From: Bacteroidota bacterium
GTDB lineage: Bacteria; Bacteroidota; JABWAT01
NCBI GenBank assembly: GCA_013360915.1
Contig: JABWAT010000002.1
Location: forward strand, 258,098-322,097
DNA length: 64,000 nucleotides
Reading direction: 5' to 3'
Position 1 is the first letter of the stretch, and each line of letters starts with the position of its first letter. A model generated the notes under the pieces. That model made no database searches. It saw only the letters and a list, made by a program, of their open reading frames with translations, and was not told the origin of the DNA. Shown here one piece after another: positions 12,144 to 64,000 of this stretch. The translations under genes were made by a program, and so were the position numbers.

Positions 12144-12550
12144 TGATCAGTCACGATCTGCAACTCAGGGTATTGTATGGACATACCGACCAGATGGGCG
12201 TTGTTTATTACGGCCGGTATTTCGAGTATTTCGAAGCAGGCCGGAATGAACTATTACGAGCCATTGGACTGCCTTACTACCGGATGGAAGATCAGGGATT
12301 GATGTTGCCGGTGGTGGAGTCGCACGCCGATTACCGCGGTTCCTTCCGTTACGATGATCTGTTTACGATCAGAACCATCATCCGGACGATGCCAACTGTT
12401 AAGATCAGGCTGGATTATGAACTGTTTTTGCCAGGCGGTCCGGTTCAGGTGACCGGATTTACCCAGCATGTTTTTGTTGACCGCGACACACGGAAACCAC
12501 GCCGGGTTCCCGACACTATACTGAAGGCCTTTTCACCTTATTTCACATGA
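12140..12550 (+). CDS. acyl-CoA thioesterase, 4HBT/YbgC family
   Basis: 136 aa with the hotdog-fold thioesterase pattern ([18 protein letters not shown]). ATGA overlap with accA. Confidence 0.75.
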
Positions 12551-29907: not shown

Positions 29908-32436
29908 TTAATCCAGTTTTCCTAAATAGCGTAGTACAAAAACCGTCATGTCATCATCGTGGTCACGGCCGGCTGCGAATGAATCGCAGGCGTCGAACAT
30001 CGCACGGGTGATCATGGCCGGCTGAAGCCAGGTACGGGTGATCCGTTCGGCTGCATGGTCGAATCGTTTTTCCTCGAACCACATGACATCATCCGGATTG
30101 GTTCGTTCGGTGAACCCATCCGAAGTGGCGATCAGGACATCTCCCGGATTTAATTGAAACGACAGCGTGCTGAGTTCAAAGTCGGGGATCATGCCCAATG
30201 GGGGACCAGTCAGTTCAAGAACCGTGAAGGTATCTTTTTTTGCGTTGTAATAAAAGGGAAAGGGCATTCCGGTCGAGCACATCTCCACACGGTTCCGGTC
30301 CAGATCGAGGACCATCAGCGTCAGGCCCATTCCGATTCCTCGGTTCCGGATGGATTCACGGAGAGCCAGGTTGAGGTTTTTAACCAGTTTCTCCATGGGA
30401 AGGTCAATGTTGTAGGATCGGATGGAATTGATCAGTGCCATTTTCAGCATACCGACCACCAGTCCGGCACCCACCCCATGACCGGTTGCATCCCCGATGG
30501 CCAGACACCAGCGGTTTTTATCGATATGAATCACATCGTAATAATCGCCACCCACTTCTGCGGCGGTCCGCATCCCTGCATCGATCAGAACAGAAGGATG
30601 AATAGCCAGTGATTCGGGAAGCATATCGAACTGAAGCCGTCGTGCAAATTCCAGCTCTTCCGATTTCCTTCTCAGGTCCATCTGGAGCAATTGCTCTTCC
30701 TTTTCCTTTTGAAGGAGCAGGACTTCTTCTTCCTTGGCCTTTCTCACCGATTCAATCATCTGGTTGAAGGAACGGGTAAGGTACCCGATTTCATCGTCCT
30801 CACGCACCGGCACCCGCACATCGAGGTTACCGGCATTTACCTGACGAACCCCATGAAGTAAAATCCGGATGGGGCGCACCACCGTCAGGCGGAAAAAGGA
30901 AGGGAAAACCAGAATCACCAACAGAGTGGAAGCCACAATCATGATGATAAAAACACTGGAACCCTGATGGATGTAATTCCGGTGTTCCTGGTAGAAGTCC
31001 TCGAAAAATGCCCGGCCGGGAGGTGTGGTGACCGACACGCCCGAACTGAAGTTTACCGGAAATCCTTCGCCACCGGTTCCGGGATCTGCACCGATATATC
31101 CCGGTAAGACCGGACTGAGTCCGATGTAACTCATCCGGATACGGCCATCCGGAAAAAAGAGAACCTGAAAACTGTTCGAGGTCCGGCGTCCGAAATCGGG
31201 AACGCCCAGCCAGGTCACCGAAACCAGTGAATCCGATTGGTGAAGCAGAACAGACCCACCCTGTTCCGGATTCAGATCTTTGAACAGGATGGCCAGTTTT
31301 GGGGTTGGCCGGTAAAATTCAAAGACCAGATAACTGCGGATGGCTTCCCGGAAGCTGACCATTCCATTGGCGGAAACCCAGATCTGGCGGTAGTTTTCGC
31401 CAAAAAAAGGAAAGGAAAAGGGGAGGGACACGGTATCGGCGCCGGCATCGGTCAGAAGCAATCGCTGTTTTCCCGGAGTTTTCCAAAGCGGAGGTCCGGT
31501 GGCGATCCGGTAACCACCATTGACCAGCGGAATCAGATCAATGGTTTTCATATCGGGGGCCCGGCGTGTGAAATCGTAAATCTCGCTCAGTTTCGACATG
31601 GTTGCTGAACCGACGGTGCTGAGGACAACCAGAATCGTTACCATCGAAACCACAATGATTTTACGGGAAATGGTAGATGGTTCCGGTGATAATTTGAAGT
31701 AGGCAAGAATAAAGGAGAACAAAAAGAGCAGCCAGGCAGCGTTGGAAAAATACAGGTTGGTCTGTTCCGAAATCAGGCTGGCGTGAAACAACACATTCAG
31801 CAGCGTGGGAACCGACCCCAGCAACACAATTCCTGCCAGCAGGATCAGATCCCGGAATGGTTCAAGCGATTCATCCCTTCCGCCGGCAAGGCTTTTTAAC
31901 AGCGTTCTGATCAGACGGCGGTGATAGGCCAGGGACCAGAAGTTCAGCGGATTCCGGTCGGTGACGGGTACCATGGCCTGGCGGACCAGAAGAACCACGG
32001 CCCATGCAAAACCGGTAAGAATCAGCAGGTTGTATGCAATCTGTTCTTCGGGGATGTAATGCTGGTAAGTGACCATTCTGAAAGTCAGAACCGCAGCAAA
32101 CACCACCAGAACTGCCGTGCCGGTGATTCCCATGACTTTCATTTCTCTGACAAAATTCAGCCGAGGGTAGTGATAGGCATATTGATTAAACAGCAGGATG
32201 GCCCCGCCCAGCAGCACATACCGGATGGGGATGAGAAACTTAGCCCAGAAATCGAGCAGGGAAGAAGCGAGAAAACCGGTGAGAAAAAAGCTGCTGATCA
32301 GAAGAAAAAACAGCAAACGGTACCAGCCGCGGGTATGACGTTTCCGGCTGATTACGAAAAAAACCGCAATCAGCGTGGACAGCAGAAACTGTGAAAACGC
32401 ACTGATGGAAAACTGATTAAAATAGAAATCGGGCAT
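29908..32436 (-). CDS. membrane sensor PP2C/SpoIIE-family phosphatase (N-terminal 7-8 TM, extracytoplasmic domain, HAMP, PP2C)
   Basis: HAMP-like segment (VVRPIRILLHGVRQVNAGNLDVRV...LTRSFNQM), coiled coil, PP2C motifs (EVGGDYYDVI, GDATGHG, TDGFTE). N-terminal polytopic block plus a ~200-aa extracytoplasmic insert. Confidence 0.7.
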   Translation of the reverse strand: MPDFYFNQFSISAFSQFLLSTLIAVFFVISRKRHTRGWYRLLFFLLISSFFLTGFLASSLLDFWAKFLIPIRYVLLGGAILLFNQYAYHYPRLNFVREMKVMGITGTAVLVVFAAVLTFRMVTYQHYIPEEQIAYNLLILTGFAWAVVLLVRQAMVPVTDRNPLNFWSLAYHRRLIRTLLKSLAGGRDESLEPFRDLILLAGIVLLGSVPTLLNVLFHASLISEQTNLYFSNAAWLLFLFSFILAYFKLSPEPSTISRKIIVVSMVTILVVLSTVGSATMSKLSEIYDFTRRAPDMKTIDLIPLVNGGYRIATGPPLWKTPGKQRLLLTDAGADTVSLPFSFPFFGENYRQIWVSANGMVSFREAIRSYLVFEFYRPTPKLAILFKDLNPEQGGSVLLHQSDSLVSVTWLGVPDFGRRTSNSFQVLFFPDGRIRMSYIGLSPVLPGYIGADPGTGGEGFPVNFSSGVSVTTPPGRAFFEDFYQEHRNYIHQGSSVFIIMIVASTLLVILVFPSFFRLTVVRPIRILLHGVRQVNAGNLDVRVPVREDDEIGYLTRSFNQMIESVRKAKEEEVLLLQKEKEEQLLQMDLRRKSEELEFARRLQFDMLPESLAIHPSVLIDAGMRTAAEVGGDYYDVIHIDKNRWCLAIGDATGHGVGAGLVVGMLKMALINSIRSYNIDLPMEKLVKNLNLALRESIRNRGIGMGLTLMVLDLDRNRVEMCSTGMPFPFYYNAKKDTFTVLELTGPPLGMIPDFELSTLSFQLNPGDVLIATSDGFTERTNPDDVMWFEEKRFDHAAERITRTWLQPAMITRAMFDACDSFAAGRDHDDDMTVFVLRYLGKLD

Positions 32437-47048: not shown

Positions 47049-50000
47049 ATGAAACACAGAATCAGTCGCCTCCTTCTTTTCCTTTTCTTTCTCTTGGGTC
47101 CCCTGACCTCGGCGGCTCAGTCTATTCTTTTTGACCGTCTGGGCGCCGAACAAGGCTTTCCTCTTGGAATTGTCAACGGAATCCTTCAGGATGAAACTGG
47201 TTTTATATGGATCGCAACCCCAGATGGATTATACCGTTACGACGGATATGGGCTAAAAGCCTACAAACACCGGCCCACCGATGTTAATTCGCTGTCTGAT
47301 AATAATATCCTCACCATTCAGCAATCAAAAACGGGAAAAATCTGGATCGGTACGGCTGGGGGAGGCTTAAACCTTTTTGACCCGGCGACAGAAACGTTCA
47401 GACGTTACCCGACCGATTTTAATGATCCGAAAGCATTATCAAACATAACCGTACGCGGAGTGGTGGAAGATTCCCGAAACATGGTCTGGATCACCACGGC
47501 CTTCGGATTGAACCGTCTGAACCCCGAAACCGGAGAAGTCACCCGGTATTTCAATCAGCCCGGAGTCCCCAATTCCCTGGCTTCAAATGACATGCGGGAT
47601 ATTACCATTGACCGTGAAGATCGTCTGTGGATTGCCACCGATGATGCCACCGGTCTGGTGTCATACAATCCCCAATCCGGACGGTTCTCCCTGTTCAGGC
47701 ATCAGCCGGGAAATCCCAATTCAATTTCGAACAACTCGATCCGGGCGGTTTATGCCGATGAACAGGGATTTGTATGGGTTGGTACCGATGCCGGATTGAA
47801 TCGGCTGAATCCGGCCAACGGGCATTTCTGGCGGGTGACCAACGACCCGCGGTACCCGCAGGCCTGGTCCCGGGTACGTATCGAAACCATTATCCGTGAC
47901 TCTCGCGGAAATATCTGGTTTGGAACGGTTACTGATGGCATTTTCCGTCTGGATATCAATTCCGGAAAAATGGTTCAGTCGAAGTATGATGTACTGAATC
48001 CGAATTCCATCAGCGGAGATTGGGTGCTTTGTCTGTTTGAAAGCCGGTCAAAAATCATATGGGCAGGAACGTCTGGCAATGGCATCAATAAGTACTCCCC
48101 GGTAAAGGAAAAATTCCGTCACTATAAAAAGGAAACCGGTAAAACCAACACCCTTCAGAGCAATACCATCCGGGCCCTATATCAGGATATGACCGGTGAT
48201 TTATGGATCGGGACCATTTCGGGTGGAGTAACGCGGATGGATCTTGAAACCGGTGAATTGACCACTATTCGCAGGGTTGCCGGCCAGGCGAATACCCTTC
48301 CCATCGACGATGTGTCGTCTGTTTTTCAGGATACACCTGGTGAAATCTGGTTTGGAACCTGGCGGGGCGGGCTGGTCAGGATGAATCAGATTTCGGGGAC
48401 CATGCAATTGTTTCAGGCCAATGAGGGAAACCAGGCTTCGCTCAGTGATGACCGGATACAAACCATTTTTAAATCGAAAAGGGGAAATCTCTGGGTCGGA
48501 ACCGAAAACGGGCTGAATCTGATCAACCGGGAGGCCGGAACCTTCACCCGATTCCGTCATAATCCCACCGATCAGGGAAGCATCAGCGACAGCCGGGTGC
48601 AGACCATTTATGAAGATACCCGCGGTCGTTTATGGATCGGCACCTGGAATGGTCTGAATCTGTTGAATGAACAAACCGGTCAGTTCACCCGGTATCTGAT
48701 GGACCGTGACGATGATCTTGGGATCAATAACAACAGTGTGATTTCCATAGCCGAAGACCGGACCGGAAAACTCTGGCTGGCAACCTATGGTGGTGGTCTG
48801 AATCTCTTTGATCCGCAGAGCGGAAAGGTGGATGTCTATTTTTCTGAGGAGGATGGTCTCCCCAGCAATCTTTTATACGGACTGACCCGCGATGATAACG
48901 GCCAACTCTGGATCAGCACCACCCGTGGTCTTTCCCGATTCAATCCGCAGGAACGGAAGTTCAGGAACTATGACAGTCAGGATGGGCTTCAGAGTACCGA
49001 ATTCTACTGGGGAGCTTATCACCGGCTGAAAGACGGACACATGGTGTTTGGTGGTCTTAACGGATTTAATTATTTCCACCCGGACAGTGTTTACGATAAT
49101 TCGCATATACCGCCGCTGGTACTCACCGGTTTCCGGATATTTGATAAACCTGCCACCCTGCCCGGGACCCTTCATTCACTTTCCGAAATCGTTCTCAGTT
49201 ACGAGCAGAACTTTTTTACCTTCGAGTTTGCAGCTCTCGACTATAACAATCCCGAAAAAAACCAGTATGCCTATAAACTGGAGGGATTTAATGAGGAATG
49301 GATAACCGCCGGGAACAACCGGTCTGCCACCTTTACCAACCTGGATGGAGGTGATTATACCTTCCGGGTCATTGGCTCAAACAGCGACAATCAGTGGAAC
49401 ATGGATGGATTGGCCATCAAACTGACCGTGCTTCCACCATTTTATAAAACGTGGTGGTTCCGGATTCTGGTGGGTCTTTCTGTTGCCGGTCTTGTGTTGT
49501 TCTGGTTCCGGACCCGTCTGAATCTGATTGAAAAACAAAAGGACCTGCTGGAACAACAGGTTGCAGAACGGACTCATGAACTGGCTCTGAAAACCGAATC
49601 GCTAGAAAACATCAACACGATTGTAAAGGCCATCAATTCTGAACTGAATTTCGGACGGTTATTGCAGGTGGTTCTTGAGCAGATCAGAGTGGTTAAGGGA
49701 ATTGAGTTTTCGGTTGCCATTGATCTGGACCGTACCCTTCAGCAATATGTCATCCGGCTGACCGAGGGAACTTCAACTCTGGCAGATACCAATATCGGGC
49801 CACGGGCTGATTTCGAGGAACGAATCATTTCCGGTGGAAAAATCATTGCTCCGAATATTCTGGTTATTCAAAAGCCTTCAGCGAACAGTCATCCCATGTG
49901 GGAAGTTCTGGACAGAGTGCCTGCAAGTATGCTGGTCTTCCGGATTCTGGTTGATCAGGTCGTGGAAGGCTATCTGATTTTTGGAAACTGGACCGATGTC

Positions 50001-50810
50001 ACCGCCTTTGACAGTCCGGATGTTCAGTTATTTGAGAATCTGAGAGAGCATATTCAGACTGCTTTCATCAAAACCCGCCTGATGGATGAACTGCGCATTC
50101 TGAACGAAAAGAAAAATGAATTTCTTGGAATTGCAGCACACGATCTGCGAAACCCGCTTACCATTATCATGAATTACGTTCAGCTCGTTGCCGAGCAGCT
50201 GAAATCGAATCGCTTCGATCCTGCAAAAGCCTCACGTGACCTTGAGAAGGTTCTGAATGTGACCCAGCAAATGACACGCATGATCGCTGCCTTCCTCGAT
50301 ATTTCTTCAATTGAGGCGGGAAAAATTGAGTTGAACAAGCGACCCGATAATGTGTCGACCCTTCTGATGGAAACCGAAAGTTTTTACCAGCGGCTGGCCG
50401 AGCAGAAATCCATTTCTCTGCAGTATCACTATCTGGGCCGGATTCCTGATGTTCACATGGACCGTGACCGGGTGGCTGAAGTGGTTGATAACCTGATCAC
50501 AAACGCCATTAAATACACTCACCCGGGCGGATCAATCACAGTGACCTGTTATGAGGAGAAGAGTGAGGTTCTGGTGACAGTTTCTGATACCGGTCAGGGA
50601 TTGACCGATTCGGACATGAAGGAATTGTTTACCAGCTTTAAAAAACTGAGTTCAACCCCGACGGCCGGAGAGGCCAGCACCGGGCTTGGTCTGGCCATTG
50701 TAAAGAAAATCATGGATCTGCACCACGGAAGGGTATGGGCTCAATCTAAAAAAGGTCACGGGTCCTCGTTCAGTATTGCGTTTCCCGTGCTTAAAAAACA
50801 GGCTGTTTAA
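47049..50810 (+). CDS. sensor histidine kinase with periplasmic two-component-regulator propeller repeats and Y_Y_Y domain (no receiver domain)
   Basis: Signal peptide. About 12 repeats of the W.GT..GL..(Y/F)D-type propeller motif. Y_Y_Y-like block (YKLEGFNEEW...GDYTFRV), TM, coiled coil, HisKA (FLGIAAHDLRNPL), HATPase_c (N..KYT, D.G.G, GLGLAIVK). Confidence 0.8.
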   Translation: MKHRISRLLLFLFFLLGPLTSAAQSILFDRLGAEQGFPLGIVNGILQDETGFIWIATPDGLYRYDGYGLKAYKHRPTDVNSLSDNNILTIQQSKTGKIWIGTAGGGLNLFDPATETFRRYPTDFNDPKALSNITVRGVVEDSRNMVWITTAFGLNRLNPETGEVTRYFNQPGVPNSLASNDMRDITIDREDRLWIATDDATGLVSYNPQSGRFSLFRHQPGNPNSISNNSIRAVYADEQGFVWVGTDAGLNRLNPANGHFWRVTNDPRYPQAWSRVRIETIIRDSRGNIWFGTVTDGIFRLDINSGKMVQSKYDVLNPNSISGDWVLCLFESRSKIIWAGTSGNGINKYSPVKEKFRHYKKETGKTNTLQSNTIRALYQDMTGDLWIGTISGGVTRMDLETGELTTIRRVAGQANTLPIDDVSSVFQDTPGEIWFGTWRGGLVRMNQISGTMQLFQANEGNQASLSDDRIQTIFKSKRGNLWVGTENGLNLINREAGTFTRFRHNPTDQGSISDSRVQTIYEDTRGRLWIGTWNGLNLLNEQTGQFTRYLMDRDDDLGINNNSVISIAEDRTGKLWLATYGGGLNLFDPQSGKVDVYFSEEDGLPSNLLYGLTRDDNGQLWISTTRGLSRFNPQERKFRNYDSQDGLQSTEFYWGAYHRLKDGHMVFGGLNGFNYFHPDSVYDNSHIPPLVLTGFRIFDKPATLPGTLHSLSEIVLSYEQNFFTFEFAALDYNNPEKNQYAYKLEGFNEEWITAGNNRSATFTNLDGGDYTFRVIGSNSDNQWNMDGLAIKLTVLPPFYKTWWFRILVGLSVAGLVLFWFRTRLNLIEKQKDLLEQQVAERTHELALKTESLENINTIVKAINSELNFGRLLQVVLEQIRVVKGIEFSVAIDLDRTLQQYVIRLTEGTSTLADTNIGPRADFEERIISGGKIIAPNILVIQKPSANSHPMWEVLDRVPASMLVFRILVDQVVEGYLIFGNWTDVTAFDSPDVQLFENLREHIQTAFIKTRLMDELRILNEKKNEFLGIAAHDLRNPLTIIMNYVQLVAEQLKSNRFDPAKASRDLEKVLNVTQQMTRMIAAFLDISSIEAGKIELNKRPDNVSTLLMETESFYQRLAEQKSISLQYHYLGRIPDVHMDRDRVAEVVDNLITNAIKYTHPGGSITVTCYEEKSEVLVTVSDTGQGLTDSDMKELFTSFKKLSSTPTAGEASTGLGLAIVKKIMDLHHGRVWAQSKKGHGSSFSIAFPVLKKQAV

Positions 50811-53581: not shown

Positions 53582-55771
53582 ATGTTTTTCATGCACAAAC
53601 TGCTTTTTTTGTTTTTCCTTCCTGTTCTGAATGTTCTTTCTTTCGCTCAGGGTTCCGAAACCTTTTCCAATATTCCCACAGGCCAATCCAGTTATGCCTC
53701 ACGGACATGGACCGGTGATAATGGACTTCAATGGACGGCTTCTAAGGCGCGGACCGACCTGACCATCACAGGTCCGGCCATTACCGTCGACGGACGGACG
53801 ACCACAGAATCCATTTCTGTCACTGGCATTCCGGGCGGAATCGGGTCCATCACGCTGACTCACCGACAGGAATTTACCGGATCGGGCGGTTTACTGACGG
53901 TCAAAATCAACGGTGAAACGGTGGGGTCGGCCATTCCGATCACCACCACGGCCACCGCATCGACGATAACAAACATTGGTATATCGGGTACCATTGCACT
54001 TACCATTGAGATTACCTCGGTTCGTGCCTCGGTGGATGATATCACCTGGACCGGCAGTGATGGGGGAGGCCCGGTTCTGAAAGGAGAACCCAGTTCGTAT
54101 CCCACCTCGGTGATAGCCCCGAATCCGGCCGCCACCAGTTTTTCGGTGGAATGGCTCGATGCAGTGGGAGATACCCTGCCGGATGGTTATCTGCTCAAAG
54201 GATCTGCCACCGGATTTGCTTCGATTCCATCGCCGGTTGATGGCGTGGCCGAACTTACCGGTGTGCTGACGAAAACCGCTTCATTCGGGGTTGAAACTGT
54301 CCTTTTCACCGGACTGGAAGCATCGACAACCTACTATCTGAAGATATTTCCCTACACCAATTCGGGTGCATCCATCAATTATAAAACGGATGGAGAGGCG
54401 CCTCAGGTCAGCGTGACCACGGCTTCATCAGGTGGTGGAGGCGGAGATATCCCGGCCGGTTACTATCAGACGGCCACCGGATCGGGTGCGACGCTGAAGA
54501 CCAATCTGTACAACATCATCAAGGGACATACCTCGGTCAGTTACAATTCGCTTTACACTCACTTCCAGTCAACCGACAGCCGGTCGGATGGCAAGATATG
54601 GGATATGTACTCCAACGTAACCTGGACGCATGGTCAGAAGCAATGTGGCAGTTATTCGCAAGAAGGGGATTGCTACAACCGGGAGCACTCATTTCCGGCT
54701 TCCTGGTTTAACGATGCCAGTCCGATGTATTCTGACTTGTTTCATCTGTATCCGACCGATGGGTATGTGAACAACCGGCGTAGTAACTATCCGTTTGGCC
54801 GGGTGAACTCACCCAGTTACACCTCACAGAACGGAAGTAAAGTCGGTTCAAACTCCACACCGGGTTTTTCAGGAACCGTTTTCGAACCGATTGACGAATA
54901 CAAAGGTGATTTTGCCCGAACCGTTTTCTACATGGTCACCCGTTATGAAAACCTGGTCTCTGGGTGGGAAAACAACACATCCAACGCCGATGCAGTCCTG
55001 TCGGGAAATACCTTTCCGGCATTGGAGCAGTGGGCGCTCGATCTGTACTGGCAGTGGCATCAGGATGATCCCGTCAGCCAGAAGGAAATCGATCGCAATA
55101 AGGCCATTTATGAAATTCAGGACAACCGGAATCCATACATCGACCATCCGGAATATGTTGATCTGGTCTGGGGCGGGGTTGCCACGGCTGTTGAACTGAC
55201 CGACTGGTCGGGCCATTGGATAAACGGATCGGTCCGGTTAAACTGGAGTACCGAATCGGAGTGGGAATCGGCCGGATTTGAAGTTTTCCGGTCGGACCAT
55301 CCGGCGGATGGATTCAGGAAAATTGCGTCGGTTGATCTGACGGATAAAAAAGCCCCCCATGGCACCAATGGCGGGCAGTATGAATGGACGGACCTTGTTC
55401 CCCATCAGGCCCGGGTATGGTATTACCGGCTGGATGAATTGTCGGCATCGGGTGAACGGACGTCCTATCCGGTTATCCGAGTGAAATCAACCGGGGAAAC
55501 AATTGGAAAGCTCGAGGTGCATTCTATATGGCCGAATCCGTTCAATCCGTCGGTACAAATGGATTATTCAGTAGCGACAGGCGGAGAGGCCACCATTTCG
55601 GTGGTGTCGGTGCTGGGTCAGGTGCAAATGACTCAAAAAATTCAACTGACACCGGGAAGGCATGAGTGGCAATGGTCTCCGACCGGGCAGCCGGTGGCTT
55701 CGGGCGTCTATTACATCATCATCCGCACAGCCGGATCGACCATTTCAAAACCGGTGGTTTATCTGAAGTAG
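53582..55771 (+). CDS. secreted Endonuclease-I family (EndA/NucM-like) nuclease with N-terminal Thr-rich beta domains and T9SS C-terminal sorting domain
   Basis: Signal peptide. Middle region YN.EHSFPASWF...DLFHLYPTDGYVNNRRSNYPFG...DEYKGDFARTVFYM matches Pfam Endonuclease_1. C-terminal IWPNPFNPS...SGVYYIIIRT matches the T9SS CTD. Confidence 0.7.
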   Translation: MFFMHKLLFLFFLPVLNVLSFAQGSETFSNIPTGQSSYASRTWTGDNGLQWTASKARTDLTITGPAITVDGRTTTESISVTGIPGGIGSITLTHRQEFTGSGGLLTVKINGETVGSAIPITTTATASTITNIGISGTIALTIEITSVRASVDDITWTGSDGGGPVLKGEPSSYPTSVIAPNPAATSFSVEWLDAVGDTLPDGYLLKGSATGFASIPSPVDGVAELTGVLTKTASFGVETVLFTGLEASTTYYLKIFPYTNSGASINYKTDGEAPQVSVTTASSGGGGGDIPAGYYQTATGSGATLKTNLYNIIKGHTSVSYNSLYTHFQSTDSRSDGKIWDMYSNVTWTHGQKQCGSYSQEGDCYNREHSFPASWFNDASPMYSDLFHLYPTDGYVNNRRSNYPFGRVNSPSYTSQNGSKVGSNSTPGFSGTVFEPIDEYKGDFARTVFYMVTRYENLVSGWENNTSNADAVLSGNTFPALEQWALDLYWQWHQDDPVSQKEIDRNKAIYEIQDNRNPYIDHPEYVDLVWGGVATAVELTDWSGHWINGSVRLNWSTESEWESAGFEVFRSDHPADGFRKIASVDLTDKKAPHGTNGGQYEWTDLVPHQARVWYYRLDELSASGERTSYPVIRVKSTGETIGKLEVHSIWPNPFNPSVQMDYSVATGGEATISVVSVLGQVQMTQKIQLTPGRHEWQWSPTGQPVASGVYYIIIRTAGSTISKPVVYLK

Positions 55772-55785
55772 AAACGAACCGGCTA

Positions 55786-56121
55786 TCAGCCGGCTTCACC
55801 CCCATTGGTAATGCGGATCACCTGCTCCTCCAGGTCAATCCGGTACCCGTCTGACCGTGCGTACAGGGCCAGTTTCCTGAATAACGCATCGACCGTTCTG
55901 GCTAGGGAGTGGTTTACCGGATTTATGGTCGTCACTTCCCATCCATTCTTAACATTCCGGATAACAAGAACCGGGGCTGTCACCCCGGCTTCCTTTGCTG
56001 CGACTGTGAGCACCTGGTTAGTTTCTGAAACCACCTGCCCGAGCCAGGCAGGTTGAACGGACTGAGCTACACCTGCCTGAAAAAATCCGACCAGAATGAG
56101 GGTGAGTACCGACCGGATCAT
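55786..56121 (-). CDS. small secreted hypothetical protein
   Basis: Start chosen at MIRSVLTLILVGFFQAGVAQS (signal peptide), immediately after the upstream SBP stop. 111 aa. Confidence 0.35.
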   Translation of the reverse strand: MIRSVLTLILVGFFQAGVAQSVQPAWLGQVVSETNQVLTVAAKEAGVTAPVLVIRNVKNGWEVTTINPVNHSLARTVDALFRKLALYARSDGYRIDLEEQVIRITNGGEAG

Positions 56122-56123
56122 TC

Positions 56124-57842
56124 TTACTTTTTCATGGCTTCGCGCCATTGTTCAATGGTGGAGAGCTGTGAAGTCACTCCGTACAGATAAATACTGGCAG
56201 GGTCAAATTGAGTGGAGAAGTAATTCAGACTCGGAAGGGAAAAGAGCCAGGCTCCCAGAGCCAGTTCATGTTCGGTCTGATCGACCCGTCTGGCATATTC
56301 CTGTTTGTCCCCGATGTTCGATGCGGCCATAAATCCGTAGACGTATTCAAGCAGGAGTGCTTCCTTTTCAGGATCGCCCTTGGTGTCGGTGGCATCCAGC
56401 CGGAAGTAGTTCCGGTTGCCGGCCAGGGACGAGGCATTCACTGTACCTCCCATTCCATTGGTTACCAGATTGATCCGGTACTGTTCAGGATCAGGTTCCC
56501 GCAGGAAAATATCGTACAGATCGAACAGGAAATTGCTCCGGTAGCCATTAACCGCCACCAGAACCGCATCGTAATTACCGGTACGGAGGTCTTCGGCCGA
56601 GGCGGCTGTGGCCCGGATCCGGTTTTTACCAATGGCTGGTTCATTCAGTATGGTGACCAATTCGGATAACTCTTCACGGTTTCCTGCATTCAGAAACACT
56701 TTGATCCGGACCGAATCGGGAAGTACTGACAGATCAGGTCCTGCCGACAAACGGGCAGGGGTCACCACTTCCTCTTCGATGTAATAGGAACTTGAGGGAA
56801 ACACACTGTAATTGAGAAAATCATTGTAAGCATTGGTTTTTCCCTTGTAGTCGGTCACCGGCCGTTGCTGGGGTGTTCCGGCTTTGAAAAACCGGCTCAG
56901 AATGGCCTGATTGTTCAGCAATCCGCGCAGACTTTGTCTCTGTTCCAGACTCAGACGGTCGGTGTTGAATAAAACCGCGAAGAAGGTGGTGCTGATGTTG
57001 GGTTTGGCAAAAAATTCCTCCGGGTCAGACAGGAGCGGAGAGGAAGATCCGAAGGGCGTACCCGGAAGAACATTAAACTCACCGTTGGCAAACTCGGTCT
57101 GGTAGGTGGAGTTATCAATAAACGGAACCAGTTTCAGAGTGGTGATTCCGGCCGGCCCCCCTGGCATTCTGATGAACCAATCCGGGGTTCCTTCCGGTCT
57201 GACCTGCAGGTAGGGTCCCGATCCGATCGGATAGGCAGCCTGATTCAGCTGAGAGCTTGCAGGCAGAACTTTAAAAGAAAAGACTTCCTTGACATCATTT
57301 TCGGTCCAGATTCTGGTGGGTTTTAACTGAAACCGTATTTCATCGTTTTCATCGGGACCTGTGAAGTCAAAGGATTCGAGAGCCTGTGCCACCAGAATAT
57401 AATCGGGCGACAAACTTCCCAGTGCCAGAATCCGGCGCAGGGTAAATCGGATATCCCGTGCAGTGACCGGAACCATGTTTCCTTCGCTGATGGTCAGTTC
57501 ATCATCCTGAACGACCGGTTTCCAGGAATCATGCCATTTTTTACCCGGTTTCAGACGGATAATCACGGTATTTTCGGTGGTAATCCCGACCAGTTCACCC
57601 AATCCATCTTCATAAACGATTCCCGACGGATTTGCGGAGATGTTAAACAGACCATCATACAGCACTTCATCCAGTTTATCGGATAACGGGTCGGCTGCCG
57701 GAAGCTGTGGGTCCAGAACAGGAGGCTGGTGTGAGATGTATGGAATGGCAATGGTATCTTTCAGCCGGTTGGATGGCCAGAACAGAAAGGTGAGCAGGGC
57801 CACAACAGCAATTCCACCGCCAATGAGAAGTCCTTTTTTCAT
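56124..57842 (-). CDS. ABC transporter substrate-binding protein, family 5-like (peptide/nickel), N-terminally TM-anchored
   Basis: N-terminal TM. VLDPQ...DGLFNISANPSGIVYEDGLGELVGITTENTVIIRLKPGKKWHD resembles the family-5 SBP N-lobe. Sits in an operon with Dpp/Opp-type permeases and ATPase. Confidence 0.55.
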   Translation of the reverse strand: MKKGLLIGGGIAVVALLTFLFWPSNRLKDTIAIPYISHQPPVLDPQLPAADPLSDKLDEVLYDGLFNISANPSGIVYEDGLGELVGITTENTVIIRLKPGKKWHDSWKPVVQDDELTISEGNMVPVTARDIRFTLRRILALGSLSPDYILVAQALESFDFTGPDENDEIRFQLKPTRIWTENDVKEVFSFKVLPASSQLNQAAYPIGSGPYLQVRPEGTPDWFIRMPGGPAGITTLKLVPFIDNSTYQTEFANGEFNVLPGTPFGSSSPLLSDPEEFFAKPNISTTFFAVLFNTDRLSLEQRQSLRGLLNNQAILSRFFKAGTPQQRPVTDYKGKTNAYNDFLNYSVFPSSSYYIEEEVVTPARLSAGPDLSVLPDSVRIKVFLNAGNREELSELVTILNEPAIGKNRIRATAASAEDLRTGNYDAVLVAVNGYRSNFLFDLYDIFLREPDPEQYRINLVTNGMGGTVNASSLAGNRNYFRLDATDTKGDPEKEALLLEYVYGFMAASNIGDKQEYARRVDQTEHELALGAWLFSLPSLNYFSTQFDPASIYLYGVTSQLSTIEQWREAMKK

Positions 57843-57859
57843 GTGATGCTCCGGTTCGG

Positions 57860-60226
57860 TTAATTTTTACGGATAAGAGGTACCTGGGTCATGACACTGA
57901 TTTCATGAACCTTGAATGACCGGTGTCTGAACTGAACGTCCAGAATGTTTTCTTTCCCCTTGTTAGTCTGGATCGGGGTGATTCTGGCTGTATAATCATT
58001 GGCAGCGGTGGGAGCTTCGATCACAATCCGACCTTCATTTTTAATGGGTTTACCATTGATGGTGATCGATTCAAACCAGGATTCCTGGCTGGCATTTTTG
58101 GCCAATTCGGCTGGTAATTTGATATTAATATCCCAAACGGGAAAGGCCGCATCGGTTTCCATGACCAGATTCATCCGGAACCGGTAGTCATTGCTTCCCG
58201 ATTGATTTGAGGTGACGGGTGTGACAAACACTTTCCGGTACTGGGTTGGCTTGGTGATGCGTTTGGCCAGCATCGGATCCACCTCGGCAATGGCCGTTTT
58301 TATTTTCTGATCGGTTCCTTTATACATTTTTCCGTGGGCAAGGATGGCACGTGCCTTCGCCACTCCGTTGGCAGATGGATTGGAAAGAAAATCCCGGTAA
58401 ATCAGATCGATGGCATTTTCTGGAAAGGTGACGGTTTTCAACCGGGTTAACCGGTCACGGATGGCCTGGTTTTTCTTCTGCAGATCACCCTCATTTCCCG
58501 TGGTGTAGGAAATGGTGTAAACAGGTTCCCAGACGGAGGCGGTGTACAAACTGTCAACGGCATCAACAGTCTGACTGTTTTCCTTCATAAAGCCGGAGAC
58601 GAGCTCATCGGTGAGGGATTCCACGGTCTGGAAGAGAGTCTGCTCGAGATCTCTTACCGTGCGGGACTTGTACGGAAGAATGGCTTTCAGATCCAGATAA
58701 TCGGTGTCGCGGTTCAATTCGATCAGGCCATTTTCGGCGGCACCAAATTCATGGTTGCGGATATTGGCAGAGATGGAATCACGTTGGGCATTTACCGAGG
58801 CTTCATCCAGACCGCGGTACTGTGCCAGCAGAAAACCCAGGTCCTTGTTTCGGTTCAGAAGGGAAAGAATCGATTTAAAATCGTTCTCATTTTTCAGTTG
58901 GGAAATGGTTCCGGCGGCTGCTCCTGCCCGGCGGTATTGAGACAACGTCTTGTTATACTGATCGAGAGCGGACCTGATCTGACCGTTCAGAAGGCTGACA
59001 GCCCGCGTTCCCGACCAGGTACCATATTCGCTGGTCTGAACACGAGGAAGGGAAGATTGCAGGTTCTCGAGTCGTCTGACCAATCCCTGATAAAAGTCGG
59101 AAGTGGGCCATCCCTGATACTCACTGACCTCCCCGCTCAGCTTTTCCAGAGTGGATGTCAGGGTCGATAGTTGAGTGGTATTCTGGTTAAAACGGTTTCT
59201 GAAACCAACCACCTGATTAAAATCGGCTGCAGGTGTGAGGGAGAGCAGAGGATACAGGGATTCGACCGAAGCCAGGTTTTCATCGAAGGGTTTTATATCC
59301 TGTTTCTGCCGGATGCGCTGATCAAACCAGGAGGTCAGACTTTGAACCCGCGGGCGGAATGTTTTCAGGATCTCGGACTGGGTTCCGGCAGGAAACCGGT
59401 TTAATGAGCCAAGAAGATCGCTGAGAACCTCGATGGAACCTGCCAGCATGGCCGGATTATTACGGGTTTCAGATTCGAGCCTGTAGGCCTTCAGCAGTTT
59501 CAGGTAAAGGTTTTGGAAGGCCAGTTCATCGGCAACGGCCGAGGAAAGTTGATTCCATGAACTGAAGGATGGGTCTGCGGAAGTCTGGCTTGCAACCGGG
59601 ATCACTGACTTGAGCTGAGTGAGACCGGCCTGAACCTGTTTTTGTATGCCGATGAATTTCTCAAGTTCAGCAAGCGCAGTGGGGAATTGAAATCCCTGAA
59701 AATTGACTTTAGATCCGAGGGAATCGACGTACAACCGGTTTGCAATGGCCGACTGATGATCCTTTTCCAGAGCAGCAAAGGTTGATTCGAACCGGAAACG
59801 CCAGTCGGGGAGGTAACGGTATTGTAGGTTTAGAGTCAGGTCGGCCGTCACACTATCAATCACCCAGTAGTGCGTCTGGCCTGACCGTTCAAATTTCCAG
59901 GCACGGAATCCGGCCGGTGCCGCTTCCATTTCTTTGATTTTAACAATCTCGCCCTTTCCGTCATCGAACCGGCTGGTGAAATAAAAACGAAGCACATCAA
60001 ACTGGTCGCTTTTCAAAGCCAGGGCCATTCCTTCGCGGTCGGTTCCGGGGAAGGCAATGTAATATTTGTTTTTTGCAGACAGGTCGAACCGGTTATCACC
60101 CGCTTTCAGTTCGATGTAAGTGCCTTCGGCAGACGAAATCGGGGGTTTGGGAGAGAGTTCGCTGAAAGTGGAACAGCCGGTCAGGGCGGTTGCAGCGATC
60201 AACACCAGAAAAAGTACTTTATGCAT
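57860..60226 (-). CDS. large hypothetical lipoprotein (788 aa) embedded in the ABC transporter operon
   Basis: MHKVLFLVLIAATALTGCS lipobox. Predominantly helical, no recognisable catalytic motif. Confidence 0.5.
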   Translation of the reverse strand: MHKVLFLVLIAATALTGCSTFSELSPKPPISSAEGTYIELKAGDNRFDLSAKNKYYIAFPGTDREGMALALKSDQFDVLRFYFTSRFDDGKGEIVKIKEMEAAPAGFRAWKFERSGQTHYWVIDSVTADLTLNLQYRYLPDWRFRFESTFAALEKDHQSAIANRLYVDSLGSKVNFQGFQFPTALAELEKFIGIQKQVQAGLTQLKSVIPVASQTSADPSFSSWNQLSSAVADELAFQNLYLKLLKAYRLESETRNNPAMLAGSIEVLSDLLGSLNRFPAGTQSEILKTFRPRVQSLTSWFDQRIRQKQDIKPFDENLASVESLYPLLSLTPAADFNQVVGFRNRFNQNTTQLSTLTSTLEKLSGEVSEYQGWPTSDFYQGLVRRLENLQSSLPRVQTSEYGTWSGTRAVSLLNGQIRSALDQYNKTLSQYRRAGAAAGTISQLKNENDFKSILSLLNRNKDLGFLLAQYRGLDEASVNAQRDSISANIRNHEFGAAENGLIELNRDTDYLDLKAILPYKSRTVRDLEQTLFQTVESLTDELVSGFMKENSQTVDAVDSLYTASVWEPVYTISYTTGNEGDLQKKNQAIRDRLTRLKTVTFPENAIDLIYRDFLSNPSANGVAKARAILAHGKMYKGTDQKIKTAIAEVDPMLAKRITKPTQYRKVFVTPVTSNQSGSNDYRFRMNLVMETDAAFPVWDINIKLPAELAKNASQESWFESITINGKPIKNEGRIVIEAPTAANDYTARITPIQTNKGKENILDVQFRHRSFKVHEISVMTQVPLIRKN

Positions 60227-60301
60227 GATTAACCTCCGGGGAAAAGGAACTTGTGCTTAAAACAATCATGAGGACCGGTAAATTCCATCTATTAATGCCC
60301 A

Positions 60302-61774
60302 TCAGACGATATCCGCTGATAAAAAGATCCGGTTGCCAGGTCTGGTGAGGCGGTCAAAGATGGCTTCATTGTGAGAAATCAGTAAAACGGCAGTCTGTTT
60401 TTCCAGAGCCGTTGTAAGCAGGTTCATAAAAAGCTGAATCGTCCGGAAATCAACTCCGTTCAATGGTTCATCGAGAATCAGAATCCGGGGAGAGGCAGCC
60501 ATGCTTCTGAGAAGATTCAGTCGCTGTTTCTGGCCACCGCTCAGGAATTTCACCTTTTGTTTCAGAAAGCCCGGGTCTATCTGATTGATGAATGCAGTTT
60601 GAAGGTAAGCGCGCACCTGTTCAGACGTGGAAAGATCTGGATTGCGCAATGCAAAAAAGACCTGTTCCACCGTTGAAGATTGGTTCAGCGCTTCATCGGC
60701 CAGCTGAAAGGCCATGGAAAGGGTCTTTCCCCACAGGGTATTTTTCCAGAACCCGGGCGGAGTGTTTCCATTCAGTAAATGGCTTCCGATGGTCAGATTC
60801 AGATCTGAGGCGCGGTACAAACCAAGAATGACACGGGCAATGGTGGTTTTTCCCACTCCGCTTGGTGCCTTCAGATAGGTCAGATTACCGGCTGTCAGCG
60901 ACAGGTTCACCTGATTGGCTGCCTCATTGGAAAAAACGAGCCGGCGCCCGTGAACCTCCAGTCCTGACTCGAGGGACAGGACTGGGTGGCCATTGGTTTG
61001 TTTCAAAGGCTGAAGGGATTGCTGCCAGCCGGAATAACCGGCTGCGTCAAATTCTGTCTGCGTGACCGATCCATCCGGTTGCCGGCTCAGTTCCTGAAAT
61101 TGAAAATGAGGCAGCCATTCCTGTTCCTGCAGGTACGTGATGATGGTGTAATCGTGTGTGATCAGCAGTGCGGTGGTTCCATAAGTCCGGTAAGACTGCA
61201 TCAGTTGCTGCAGAAATGCATTGCGGAATCCATTATCCAGACTGCCGGTGGGTTCATCGAAAACAAAAAGGGCTTCCGGATTTGATCCTTTCTGCAGTCG
61301 TTTGGCCTTTTGCAGCGCCATGGCCAGCAGAAATCGTTGTTTTTCTCCGCCACTGGGACGGTAAGATTGCGGATAGACAGGCAGAAGAGGTTTCCATCCA
61401 TCCGATTGCCAGAGCGCGGTCAGAATCGCCTCCTCGCCGGAAAGCCCGGCCAGGTCTGCTTCATGAAGCTGGTCCTGCACGGTCATGGCCGGATTCAGGT
61501 GAGTGGAGGGTTCCTGGAAGACGAAAAATCCCTGTTTTCTGAAGGTCTGAGTCCGTGCTGTTTTGCAATAGTCTTCATATCGTTCACCGTTTACGCGCAG
61601 TCCAAGCCGGGTCTGATCGGCAAGACCAAACAGGGAACGGGCAATGAGACTTTTTCCGATGCCGGATTCACCGAAGAGAACGTTGATTTTTCCGGGCTGA
61701 ATTAAAAACCGTTCAATTTGAACCAGACGCCGGGCCTCACTGCTGATGGTAAGGGAAAACGACCAGGGATTCAC
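60302..61774 (-). CDS. ABC transporter ATP-binding protein with two fused ATPase domains (DppD/DppF-like)
   Basis: Two Walker A motifs (GESGIGKS, APSGVGKTT), ABC signatures (PSGGEKQR, LSGGQKQR) and two Walker B motifs (FVFDEPT, LILDEP). Confidence 0.85.
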   Translation of the reverse strand: MNPWSFSLTISSEARRLVQIERFLIQPGKINVLFGESGIGKSLIARSLFGLADQTRLGLRVNGERYEDYCKTARTQTFRKQGFFVFQEPSTHLNPAMTVQDQLHEADLAGLSGEEAILTALWQSDGWKPLLPVYPQSYRPSGGEKQRFLLAMALQKAKRLQKGSNPEALFVFDEPTGSLDNGFRNAFLQQLMQSYRTYGTTALLITHDYTIITYLQEQEWLPHFQFQELSRQPDGSVTQTEFDAAGYSGWQQSLQPLKQTNGHPVLSLESGLEVHGRRLVFSNEAANQVNLSLTAGNLTYLKAPSGVGKTTIARVILGLYRASDLNLTIGSHLLNGNTPPGFWKNTLWGKTLSMAFQLADEALNQSSTVEQVFFALRNPDLSTSEQVRAYLQTAFINQIDPGFLKQKVKFLSGGQKQRLNLLRSMAASPRILILDEPLNGVDFRTIQLFMNLLTTALEKQTAVLLISHNEAIFDRLTRPGNRIFLSADIV

Positions 61775-62622
61775 AGATGATGCCTTCCGGAATAGCCATT
61801 GCCGATGCGGAACCAGCAGACCAGGGTAAAGGTGATGAGAAAGGCGACTGACAAGCCCTGAAGGTGGCGGGTTATCATCGGCCAGAAGTAAGTTGGATCG
61901 GACAGCAACACACCGATGGAAAGGATGTCCTGTTTGCTGTCGATATGGGCCAGCATTGAGCCGAGCGTGGGAGGAAAGTTCACCGCACTGACCGTTTGTG
62001 AAAGTCCGACCGAAAGCACAAAATCAATGCTGCAAAGCAGAAAGATTGTCAGACCGGTTCCGCTGATAAGTTTATTGATCAGGTGGGGGCGGCTGTTTCT
62101 CCACCAGATTTCGATCAGGATCAATACCCGGTCAGGAACGCCAGCTACCCTTGAGGCATGAACAAAATCGGTTTGTTCAAAGGCGGCAATCCGGTCATTC
62201 AGCATGTCGGTGAATTCATGAAACATGACCAATCCGACGGTAAGACCCATTCCGGTCAGGATCAGGGTGGGTGAGGTCAGCCAGTCTGCCTGGATAAGCA
62301 GGGTCAGAATGATAAATCCCAGAAGGAGTCCGATGATCTGGGGAACTGACCGTAAGGTCCCGAGGATCAGATCCAGCATTGTGAATATCCAGCGGTGATG
62401 GTTCCATCTGGTCAGGGTCATGATTAGCGAAAAGGAAACCGACAGAAGGGTGGCGGTGCACAGACTGACGACGGTGATCATCAGGGTATTACCAAAACCG
62501 GACCATACTCTCAACATAGCCGGCCGGTTGAGGAACAGCAGATTCCATGCCAGTAAAATCAGCAGGCCTGTGATCCAGATCAGGAACCAGCGGCGGTCCC
62601 TGTGGGTCATCCAGCCGGTCAT
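61771..62622 (-). CDS. ABC transporter permease (DppC/OppC-like)
   Basis: 6-TM permease. Start chosen at MTGWMTH, which gives an ATGA overlap with the upstream permease stop. ATGA overlap with the downstream ATPase. Confidence 0.75.
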   Translation of the reverse strand: MTGWMTHRDRRWFLIWITGLLILLAWNLLFLNRPAMLRVWSGFGNTLMITVVSLCTATLLSVSFSLIMTLTRWNHHRWIFTMLDLILGTLRSVPQIIGLLLGFIILTLLIQADWLTSPTLILTGMGLTVGLVMFHEFTDMLNDRIAAFEQTDFVHASRVAGVPDRVLILIEIWWRNSRPHLINKLISGTGLTIFLLCSIDFVLSVGLSQTVSAVNFPPTLGSMLAHIDSKQDILSIGVLLSDPTYFWPMITRHLQGLSVAFLITFTLVCWFRIGNGYSGRHHL

Positions 62623-63725
62623 GGGTTGTCTCCGGATGCTGATCGATCCATACTCAGTTGTTTCCGGTAACGCTGCACATCGACGACCCATTCAGTGGCC
62701 CGCACCAGCAGGAAGAGGGAAGCCATCATGATCAGCACATCGGGTAAGTTCCGGAAAAGGACCTGTCTTAGCAATTCATACCCGAAACGTCCCTGAATGT
62801 TCAGGGCCATTTCCAGAATGATCAGACAGGTGACCGTGAAGGCTGCCTGTTCGCGTGCGGTGGGTCCGTAATCCAACCGTGCGTTTAACATGGAATGATG
62901 AAGAAGATGTCCCGGACAGGACTTTTTCCAGGAAAGGATGACCCGCCAGGGAACCCCATCTGGTTTACCGGGTGAGAAATTTTCATTGACACCGCGGACC
63001 CGTGCCATCTGAATAAATCCGTGATGGTGATTGGTCAGAAGCAGGTTCAGGAATTTTTGGGAATACAGGGCCAGACTTCCATTGGTGAGAAGACCTAATG
63101 CCACCAGGACCGGCCAGGAATCAGCGGTCCAGAAGGCTTTGAGGCTGTATGCAACCAGAAAACCGGGAGAGAAGAGAACGAAAAGCAAAAGGGTCCGGCC
63201 GGCATCGTGCCATCCTTCCGACTCCTGTTCCTCCTTCCGGATGAAAAGTAAAAACCGGTAAGTACCGATGGTCTGTGCCCCAAAAACCGAAAAAATCAGG
63301 ACAATTGCATACAGCAGGGTAAACTCTGAAAATTGACGGAGGGCATTGAACGGATCATGAAATACCAGCCCGGCCTGTTGTCTGTTTTCTGCAAGACCAC
63401 GTGCCAGTTGATCGGATTGATACCGTCTGATGGATCGGACAACCATTTCACCATCGGAATCCGGGTTGGCTGCCTCAATCAGGTCGGCCACAATGGCCTG
63501 ATGCAGCGGATCCTGCCAATCAATTCCCGGAACCGACAGCCACCGGGCAATGGTCGGATCAGGTTTGGAGGTATTGACTGTCCTCAGTGGCTGCAGAGCC
63601 ATGCCGATGAAAAAAAACACGATGGACACCACCAGAAGAGAACCAAGATGCCGGAAAGTGATGGATGCCATGTGTTCTTCAGTCACTCCGTTTTTTAAGC
63701 CGGTAAATATCGCCAGAAAGAACAC
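62619..63725 (-). CDS. ABC transporter permease (DppB/OppB-like)
   Basis: 6-TM permease with an N-terminal periplasmic loop. First gene of the minus-strand operon. Confidence 0.75.
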   Translation of the reverse strand: MFFLAIFTGLKNGVTEEHMASITFRHLGSLLVVSIVFFFIGMALQPLRTVNTSKPDPTIARWLSVPGIDWQDPLHQAIVADLIEAANPDSDGEMVVRSIRRYQSDQLARGLAENRQQAGLVFHDPFNALRQFSEFTLLYAIVLIFSVFGAQTIGTYRFLLFIRKEEQESEGWHDAGRTLLLFVLFSPGFLVAYSLKAFWTADSWPVLVALGLLTNGSLALYSQKFLNLLLTNHHHGFIQMARVRGVNENFSPGKPDGVPWRVILSWKKSCPGHLLHHSMLNARLDYGPTAREQAAFTVTCLIILEMALNIQGRFGYELLRQVLFRNLPDVLIMMASLFLLVRATEWVVDVQRYRKQLSMDRSASGDNP

Positions 63726-63797: not shown

Positions 63798-64000
63798 TGA
63801 TTCCTTCCATGAAGTCCGATTCCACCTCTGCAGAATCAACAAAGCCGGTAACAGGATTGTTTCAGGAACCTGCAGGACACCCCATGTATCCGTTTATTGT
63901 TCTTGATACAGAAACCACCGGCATGGGTCCCTCTGCCCGGATTATTGAACTGGCCATGGTGGAAGTGAACCATGGAAAAGTGACGGCCCGGTGGGAATGG
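63798..64000 (+). CDS. DnaQ-like 3'-5' exonuclease domain protein (5' partial, runs off window end)
   Basis: FIVLDTETTGMGPSARIIELA is the Exo I motif of DEDD exonucleases. Confidence 0.5.

Follow-up and report, generated by a model that had tools for sequence, protein, structure and literature searches.

A lipoprotein of no described family linked to a divergent peptide-type ABC importer core in several bacterial groups

Six minus-strand genes of a Bacteroidota bacterium (lineage JABWAT01; contig JABWAT010000002.1, positions 258,098–322,097, a stretch of 64,000 nt referred to in full as the window) encode a putative peptide-type ATP-binding cassette (ABC) importer, and among them stands the gene of a 788-aa lipoprotein. 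Peptide-type ABC importers are textbook five-part systems that work without accessory periplasmic proteins. The locus raises the question of what such a lipoprotein is and whether it belongs to the transporter. In a preliminary description, made from the sequence of the window, the lipoprotein was regarded as an insertion between the ATPase and the substrate-binding protein (SBP). The analysis reported here gave a different picture. The lipoprotein belongs to no described family, linkage of its gene to importer genes extended over no fewer than three named groups of phylum rank and an unclassified Bacteroidota-like clade, and it marks an uncharacterised and probably ancient envelope module. 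The favoured reading, an Opp/Dpp-type importer in which the lipoprotein and a small secreted protein are dedicated periplasmic partners of a tethered SBP, has about an even chance of being correct.

Gene order and linkage of the module

The six open reading frames (ORFs) filled positions 55786–63725 of the window, with boundaries unchanged from those first proposed. The features of the operon, in the direction of transcription, were as follows.

62619–63725, minus strand: permease 1, ORF of 368 aa counted from GTG 63725
61771–62622, minus strand: permease 2, ORF of 283 aa with an ATG start
60302–61774, minus strand: fused two-domain ATPase, ORF of 490 aa with a GTG start
57860–60226, minus strand: lipoprotein, ORF of 788 aa with the lipobox LTGC and Cys18
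56124–57842, minus strand: SBP of family 5 (cluster C), ORF of 572 aa
55786–56121, minus strand: small secreted protein of 111 aa, or 120 aa if the start is at 56148
55777–55795, minus strand: terminator-like hairpin of 8 pairs (5 G-C) followed by a T-rich tail, overlapping the stop of the last gene

The tight coupling of the six genes that had been described was borne out by the ORF coordinates, the overlaps and the small gaps. The stop of permease 1 and the start of permease 2 overlapped by the expected ATGA; the overlap between permease 2 and the ATPase, which had also been given as ATGA, was GTGA, with GTG as the start codon. The intergenic gaps were 75 nt between the ATPase and lipoprotein genes, 17 nt between the lipoprotein and SBP genes, and 2 nt between the SBP gene and that of the small protein. 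The start of permease 1 was uncertain and was placed at GTG 63725, GTG 63686 or ATG 63671. The hairpin at 55777–55795 is the probable 3′ end of the operon as read from the sequence; it is a consensus match alone, and such sites were no commoner in the region than in shuffled sequence.

Relatives were sought by a scan of one genome per species and were found in 158 species. The linkage analysis used the best 80 loci of the relatives in these species, and linkage counts were made over 81 loci. The labels of the best 80 loci were mostly Fibrobacterota (Fibrobacter, Chitinivibrionales, and Chitinispirillaceae), Calditrichota (including Caldithrix abyssi), Ignavibacteriota (Melioribacteraceae and Ignavibacteriales), and "Bacteroidetes bacterium" metagenome-assembled genomes (MAGs), which were unclassified and Bacteroidota-like. 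The SBP gene directly followed the lipoprotein gene in 77 of the 81 loci, and the contigs of the other four ended first. When the six window proteins were compared with the loci by tblastn, the common order was lipoprotein, SBP, a gene for a ~290-aa protein, permease 1, permease 2, and ATPase. This full ordered set was present in 50 of the 57 loci that had at least 7 kb of sequence downstream of the lipoprotein gene. All-against-all clustering of the locus ORFs yielded exactly six shared families, in 81, 72, 61, 59, 57, and 53 loci. The ~290-aa family was that of 61 loci, each permease family formed one cluster (57–59 loci), and the ATPase family was present in 53 loci. Antisense shadow ORFs aside, no conserved flanking gene beyond the six families was found by this clustering.

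The order with the permease–permease–ATPase block before the lipoprotein–SBP–small protein block was seen only in the window and in an 89%-identical relative, and almost every other genome had the lipoprotein gene at the head of the module. Because relatives with 55–57% identity already showed the common order, insertion of the lipoprotein gene into a Dpp-like operon is not the explanation. The supposed insertion is a lineage-specific order; on comparison of the sequences, the order in the window is a genus-level cyclic permutation in which the two three-gene blocks were swapped and the linkage survived. The other part of the earlier proposal, that the lipoprotein is functionally tied to the ABC transporter, was strongly supported by linkage across groups that outlasted this rearrangement. 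The inconsistent linkage that would have spoken against this tie did not appear in the neighbourhood analysis, and the association with ABC genes was conserved.

A linkage of this kind has to be weighed against an independent periplasmic pair, in which the lipoprotein and SBP would act as a receptor, chaperone, or enzyme and would merely lie beside an ordinary peptide or oligosaccharide transporter. The link between these two genes was the tightest in the module, the two three-gene blocks can change places, and no permease or ATPase genes adjoined the pair in five of the long loci (L019, L020, L046, L054, and L077) or, separately, in L086, a complete Calditrichota genome. A patch of invariant polar residues in the lipoprotein, described below, could also be a binding or catalytic site. 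However, the permease and ATPase genes followed directly and on the same strand in the 50 of 57 informative loci, and the permeases and ATPase formed divergent families of their own, each a single cluster across the loci. Moreover, a transmembrane (TM)-tethered SBP without a cognate permease has no obvious use. An independent pair was thus considered unlikely.

In three loci, extra genes of 3.6–5.9 kb were located between the SBP and permease 1 genes (L016 14181–17965, L028 14421–18076, and L053 4355–10232), and the module tolerates insertions at this position.

A neighbour-joining tree of the SBP followed the taxon labels. This agreement suggests that inheritance of the module was old and mainly vertical. 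Some MAGs that carry the module had odd labels (L048, L084, L009, L065, L070, and L027), namely Bifidobacteriales, Gemmatimonadota, Prosthecochloris vibrioformis, and Chitinophagales, and Deltaproteobacteria for L027. Their SBPs nested within Fibrobacterota, Ignavibacteriota, or neighbouring clades in the tree, which left out L027, and mislabelling or faulty binning is the probable cause.

The importer core and its tethered binding protein

The ATPase was composed of two ABC_tran domains (Pfam, E 2.1e-36) in a single polypeptide. Ten motif stretches were compared, the Walker A, Q-loop, signature, Walker B, and H-loop of each domain, and their key catalytic residues were identical in 27 of 27 ATPase orthologues. 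The two complete ABC domains of the preliminary description were therefore present as described, with every catalytic motif intact in both. YejF was the only NCBIfam model that aligned along the whole ATPase (residues 11–472). The oligo_HPY C-terminal extension was absent from the Pfam matches of the ATPase, and each half measured only ~245 aa.

The permeases had been called DppB- and DppC-like, and this kinship was not visible in the window proteins themselves, which gave no Pfam match; it emerged through their orthologues. BPD_transp_1 was matched by 7 of 27 orthologues of permease 1 (best E 9.3e-8) and by 5 of 27 orthologues of permease 2 (best E 4.1e-9). For permease 2, weak matches were obtained in NCBIfam to Opp2B (1.9e-4) and HEQRo_perm_3TM (2.5e-3), and its family profile weakly matched MetI and Mycobacterium tuberculosis DppB in the PDB (E 0.009–0.03). 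An EAA-like loop was kept in permease 2 (residues Asp152, Phe153, Ala156, and Gly161). Permease 1 showed four strong hydrophobic segments in a simple hydropathy scan, and its orthologues occupied the same position in 59–60 loci with 25–46% identity; its family profile gave no match to PDB sequences. The EAA-type coupling region of permease 1 (residues ~232–285) looked altered, with the consensus ESRKGYV-TA-VKNL, Asn in place of the usual Gly, and ~25 extra residues ahead of the next conserved block, as read off the consensus. No FtsX or MacB_PCD match was found in Pfam for either permease. Judged by these sequence relationships, permease 1 is a long and very divergent membrane subunit of the DppB/OppB type, and permease 2 is a membrane subunit of the DppC/OppC type.

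The SBP of the window scored 31.6 bits against SBP_bac_5 in Pfam, just below the cut-off of 32.4 bits. Its assignment to family 5 was confirmed by orthologues and by a fold search, and its family profile gave no match to PDB sequences. The N-terminal TM helix was conserved, with no lipobox and no evident cleavage site. The SBP is thus a TM-anchored, family-5-like protein, as had been proposed, and is probably tethered to the inner membrane by the uncleaved helix.

Because the ATPase motifs are intact, the permease orthologues reach BPD_transp_1, and the SBP has the family-5 fold, the core is a complete type I ABC importer of the Opp/Dpp/Nik kind, one that sequence comparison only just recognises. 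Three features of such an importer were found, namely a family-5 SBP, two BPD_transp_1 subunits (through orthologues), and two intact nucleotide-binding domains (NBDs); the oligo_HPY extension of the ATPase, which is typical of these importers but does not strictly define them, was lacking.

The module resembled the Opp/Dpp/Nik importers (PepT, TC 3.A.1.5; for example E. coli DppABCDF and M. tuberculosis OppABCD) in its long and short BPD_transp_1 subunits, its two intact NBDs, and its operon of overlapping genes. However, sequence similarity to them was at the edge of detection, and the module differed in having a TM-tethered SBP, no oligo_HPY, two extra conserved periplasmic proteins, and an SBP that was the most conserved component. 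The term peptide-type (Dpp/Opp) importer, as used at first, therefore held for the architecture, whereas the sequences were far from canonical Dpp/Opp. The fused ATPase has counterparts in YejABEF, a microcin C and peptide importer, and in GsiABCD, where YejF and GsiA are also fused two-domain polypeptides. The ATPase of the module scored 95 bits against a YejF family cut-off of 834 and has 490 aa compared with the 529 positions of the NCBIfam model. To our knowledge, no lipoprotein or extra secreted protein is encoded in the Yej and Gsi operons. Generic ATPase matches were the only ones obtained from PADLOC, and a role in anti-phage defence was rejected. No description of the module was found in open-access full texts and bioRxiv.

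The putative periplasmic partners and the proposed working of the module

The lipoprotein family was defined by a length of ~740–880 aa, a lipobox Cys, conserved N- and C-terminal beta-sandwiches, and the gene of a tethered family-5 SBP directly after, and the window protein showed all of these. An exhaustive profile search of 1.84 billion representative proteins gave 127 representatives of the family at the 50% clustering level. About 45 members were full length, one architecture was kept throughout, and none shared a lone domain. The lipobox Cys was conserved and was followed by Ala or Ser. The AlphaFold model of the lipoprotein, built on 44 sequences, had a predicted local distance difference test (pLDDT) of 90.1 and a predicted template modelling score (pTM) of 0.55, a value at which inter-domain placement is uncertain. 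The model consisted of a beta-sandwich (residues ~25–140), an all-helical region (residues 141–650), and a second beta-sandwich (residues ~655–780).

That the lipoprotein has no recognisable family was borne out by searches of Pfam, NCBIfam, PADLOC, PDB sequences, and PDB folds, none of which gave a family match. When the 44 members were compared with Pfam, no family was common to more than 2 of the 44, and none of those matches was significant. The family profile matched nothing among the PDB sequences, and a word-based protein search with the 44-sequence alignment returned the same five close relatives and nothing further. Foldseek gave nothing at E 0.001 or better. A match to a well-characterised family, which would have made the lipoprotein an ordinary protein in an unusual place, was looked for by these profile and fold searches and did not appear. 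In every source, named members of the lipoprotein or SBP family were entered as "hypothetical protein", "predicted secreted protein", or a generic SBP.

The helical region gave only generic spectrin-like fold matches. Compared with the rods of spectrin, alpha-actinin, and plectin, the identity was 5–13%, the root-mean-square deviation was high, and no sequence family was common to both. The resemblance is one of shape only, as is common to many long helical proteins, and membership in the spectrin-repeat family was rejected for want of a sequence match.

A further possibility is that the 788-aa protein has diverged from a class already known, be it a second binding protein, a peptidase, or a glycan-capturing lipoprotein of the SusD-like kind. 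Weak local resemblances of a beta-sandwich to CBM6, CBM35, and the C-terminal domain of Clostridium perfringens enterotoxin (Foldseek E 0.02–0.12) point in that direction. However, no significant match was obtained from Pfam, NCBIfam, PADLOC, PDB profiles, or Foldseek, and the exhaustive profile search yielded only full-length members of the family itself. The invariant residues of the lipoprotein included no metallopeptidase or serine-hydrolase motif. A SusD/RagB-like capturing lipoprotein in particular was rejected, as neither the SusD-like fold nor the sequence family was found. Descent from a known class is very improbable on this evidence and was regarded as largely refuted.

Conservation was unevenly distributed along the lipoprotein. 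In distant members, the identity to the window protein was 50% in the C-terminal sandwich and 34% in the N-terminal sandwich, and in the helical region it was mostly 22–26%, rising to 36% in residues 511–650. Invariant polar residues (His631, Tyr635, Gly637, Glu648, Lys655, and Arg664, as grouped in the alignment) were located where the last helices meet the C-terminal domain.

The small secreted protein was present 2 nt after the SBP, as first described, and that description was incomplete, since the protein is a truncated member of the sixth conserved family. In other genomes, the gap of ~0.9 kb between the SBP and permease 1 genes contained an ORF of 280–300 aa with a signal peptide. The 111-aa protein consisted of a signal peptide and one domain, which aligned with the C-terminal ~100 residues of the ~290-aa family and was 36% identical to the C-terminal part of a 278-aa protein of L001, the closest full-length member. 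By this alignment, the 111-aa protein is a truncated copy that retains the C-terminal domain of the ~290-aa protein. No remnant of the missing N-terminal domain was found anywhere in the window, and the 89%-identical relative had the same short form, of 121 aa. The N-terminal domain of the ~290-aa family carried a conserved LSDG-T motif and an SH3-like-looking segment ending in YGW. The SH3 signals were non-significant, with 1 of 21 members matching SH3_3 at E 0.01 and the profile matching a yeast SH3 domain at E 0.2.

In L086 (Calditrichota bacterium LG25), the ~290-aa gene was replaced after the SBP by two short-repeat copies (11848–12396). The translated ORFs of the copies both contained LNFGLKIICLFFFCDY, a tetratricopeptide repeat (TPR) protein came next, and permease and ATPase genes were not nearby.

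Measured against the window proteins, the SBP had the highest median identity across loci (54%), followed by the ATPase and permease 2 (42% each), the lipoprotein (34%), and permease 1 (29%). The usual order in ABC systems is the reverse, with the ATPase as the best-conserved component and the SBP among the most variable. The higher conservation of the SBP than of the ATPase, together with the conserved ends of the lipoprotein, fits a stable periplasmic assembly, and we infer that the SBP is its hub. Two segments of the SBP (residues 242–283 and 538–572) had pLDDT values below 50 and were left unplaced by AlphaFold. In each of them 29% of residues were invariant, the highest share in the SBP, compared with 17% overall. 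Such segments, rich in invariant residues and yet unplaced, fit surfaces that become ordered only on partner binding, and in this model-based view they may be partner-binding segments.

The same pattern bears on a second alternative, in which the module is not a nutrient importer and would instead be an envelope device, with an ABC core of the importer type, that passes on force or signals. ATP-driven motion would pass through the tethered SBP hub to the rod-like lipoprotein and the secreted protein, which would act on the wall or outer membrane in tasks such as spacing, remodelling, or sensing, with a logic like that of FtsEX–EnvC or of LpoA/LpoB, outer-membrane lipoproteins whose reach extends to enzymes of the inner membrane. 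The conservation of the SBP above the ATPase and the invariant residues in its unstructured segments suggest protein–protein constraints beyond ligand binding. The lipoprotein is elongated and helical with conserved end domains, and the module appears old and vertically inherited in several related groups, which is not the picture of a patchy nutrient operon. The two weak SH3-like signals in the ~290-aa protein were independent of each other, and bacterial SH3 domains often bind peptidoglycan. In addition, LpqW provides an example of the family-5 SBP fold in a non-transport role. However, the membrane subunits are of the BPD_transp_1 importer kind and not of the MacB/FtsX kind of known mechanotransmitting systems, and a working importer needs exactly the equipment present here, two fully competent ATPase sites and an EAA-like coupling loop. 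The SH3 signal was not significant, and the lineage of the window keeps the module despite the loss of the N-terminal domain that carried the signal. Such a device is a possible but doubtful explanation.

The systems that this alternative recalls differed from the module. LpoA/LpoB and FtsEX–EnvC share with it the idea of an elongated, lipid-anchored or coiled-coil periplasmic protein that works with an inner-membrane complex. However, no sequence or fold match to them was found, and the core of the module is of the importer type with an SBP and not of the FtsX/MacB type. The membrane domain of this type with its large periplasmic domain, which characterises the mechanotransmitting ABC systems (FtsEX, MacB, and LolCDE; type VII), was not found in the module. 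Mycobacterial LpqW, a lipoprotein in its own right, is not known to have permease and ATPase genes beside its own, whereas the SBP of the module is TM-anchored and nearly always stands beside a complete transporter. A bolder form of the envelope proposal, an ancient trans-envelope machine of Fibrobacterota, Calditrichota, Ignavibacteriota, and Bacteroidota whose outer-membrane-anchored rod builds, spaces, or senses the envelope rather than feeding the cell, is speculative and improbable. If true, it would be the first type I, SBP-dependent ABC system to do mechanical or structural work in the periplasm.

The favoured reading, the importer with two dedicated periplasmic partners, starts from direct observations: which genes are present, how well they are conserved and in what order they stand, the fold classes, the lipid and membrane anchors, and ATPase motifs that are intact. 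From these we infer that the proteins form a physical complex, which membrane carries the lipid anchor, in which direction transport runs, and what kind of substrate is moved. The six genes would encode one envelope machine around the divergent importer core. The tethered SBP would be the docking site for both the secreted protein and the end domains of the lipoprotein, and the poorly conserved helical part of the lipoprotein would be a spacer; if the lipid anchor is in the outer membrane, this rod would span the periplasm. One substrate, the same in all carriers and perhaps an envelope-derived, peptide-like compound, would be captured or passed on by the assembly. From the SBP it would move to the permeases, and import would be powered by ATP hydrolysis at the two active sites.

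Several points weigh against this proposal. The separation of the permease and ATPase genes from the lipoprotein–SBP pair, in the five loci and in the complete L086 genome named above, might mean that the pair works with another partner or alone. The placement of the lipoprotein domains relative to each other is uncertain, and the SBP model was of moderate quality (pLDDT 74.8). Among solved SBPs, the nearest in fold have similar scores and yet bind ligands as different as mannopinic acid, nickel complexes, peptides, and sialic acid, and no substrate is inferable from these fold neighbours. No riboswitch or other regulatory RNA pointing to a ligand was found in the window operon at E values up to 1, and none came from six related loci.

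Surroundings of the operon and wider significance

The scan of the six related loci for regulatory RNA gave a sole match, a ZMP/ZTP riboswitch downstream of one operon (L010 19372–19453, plus strand, 55.5 bits). It was located ~0.9 kb past the ATPase gene in a Fibrobacteres MAG and is probably unrelated to the module.

In the window, a gene convergent on the 3′ end of the operon (53582–55771, plus strand) encoded a 729-aa secreted Endonuclease I protein (E 2.5e-81) with a weak FN3 match and, at its C-terminus, a sorting domain for type IX secretion. By this sorting domain, the host is confirmed as a member of a lineage that uses type IX secretion. Divergent from the operon, a gene starting at 63809 (plus strand) ran past the end of the window at 64000, with counterparts at L002 2977–4647 and L085 4764–6431. 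Its product was a 555-aa fusion of an RNase_T exonuclease, GIY-YIG, and UvrC-middle domains. Beyond this gene was an mreB–mreC–mreD–pbp2–rodA cell-elongation cluster. According to the all-against-all ORF clustering of the loci, the neighbourhood of the divergent gene and the mreBCD–pbp2–rodA cluster was not kept in other module carriers, and its proximity was dropped as a coincidence and not used as a functional clue.

Farther away in the window, a hybrid sensor kinase of 1253 aa that carried Reg_prop beta-propeller repeats along with a Y_Y_Y domain was encoded at 47049–50810 (plus strand). Large membrane proteins with a SpoIIE (PP2C) phosphatase domain at the C-terminal end were encoded at two sites, 24166–26610 and 29908–32436 (both minus strand), one with a HAMP domain and the other with an Rce1-like domain.

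Across genomes the linkage proved far stronger and more widespread than a single window could reveal. It places two further protein families, unnamed in the libraries searched, in a locked association with a very divergent importer, and the module supplies several hundred "hypothetical proteins" with a name and a genomic context. The SBP is under tighter constraint than the ATPase, a pattern indicative of several proteins joined in a stable periplasmic assembly that has one conserved task. Should that task be uptake, the module would represent a novel means by which two-membrane bacteria supply a tethered binding protein; otherwise, the known range of importer-type ABC systems would be widened. 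The carrier groups include important polymer degraders, among them Fibrobacter, the chitin-degrading Chitinivibrionales, and Melioribacter, and the module is directly testable in the cultivable carriers Fibrobacter, Caldithrix, Melioribacter, and Ignavibacterium.

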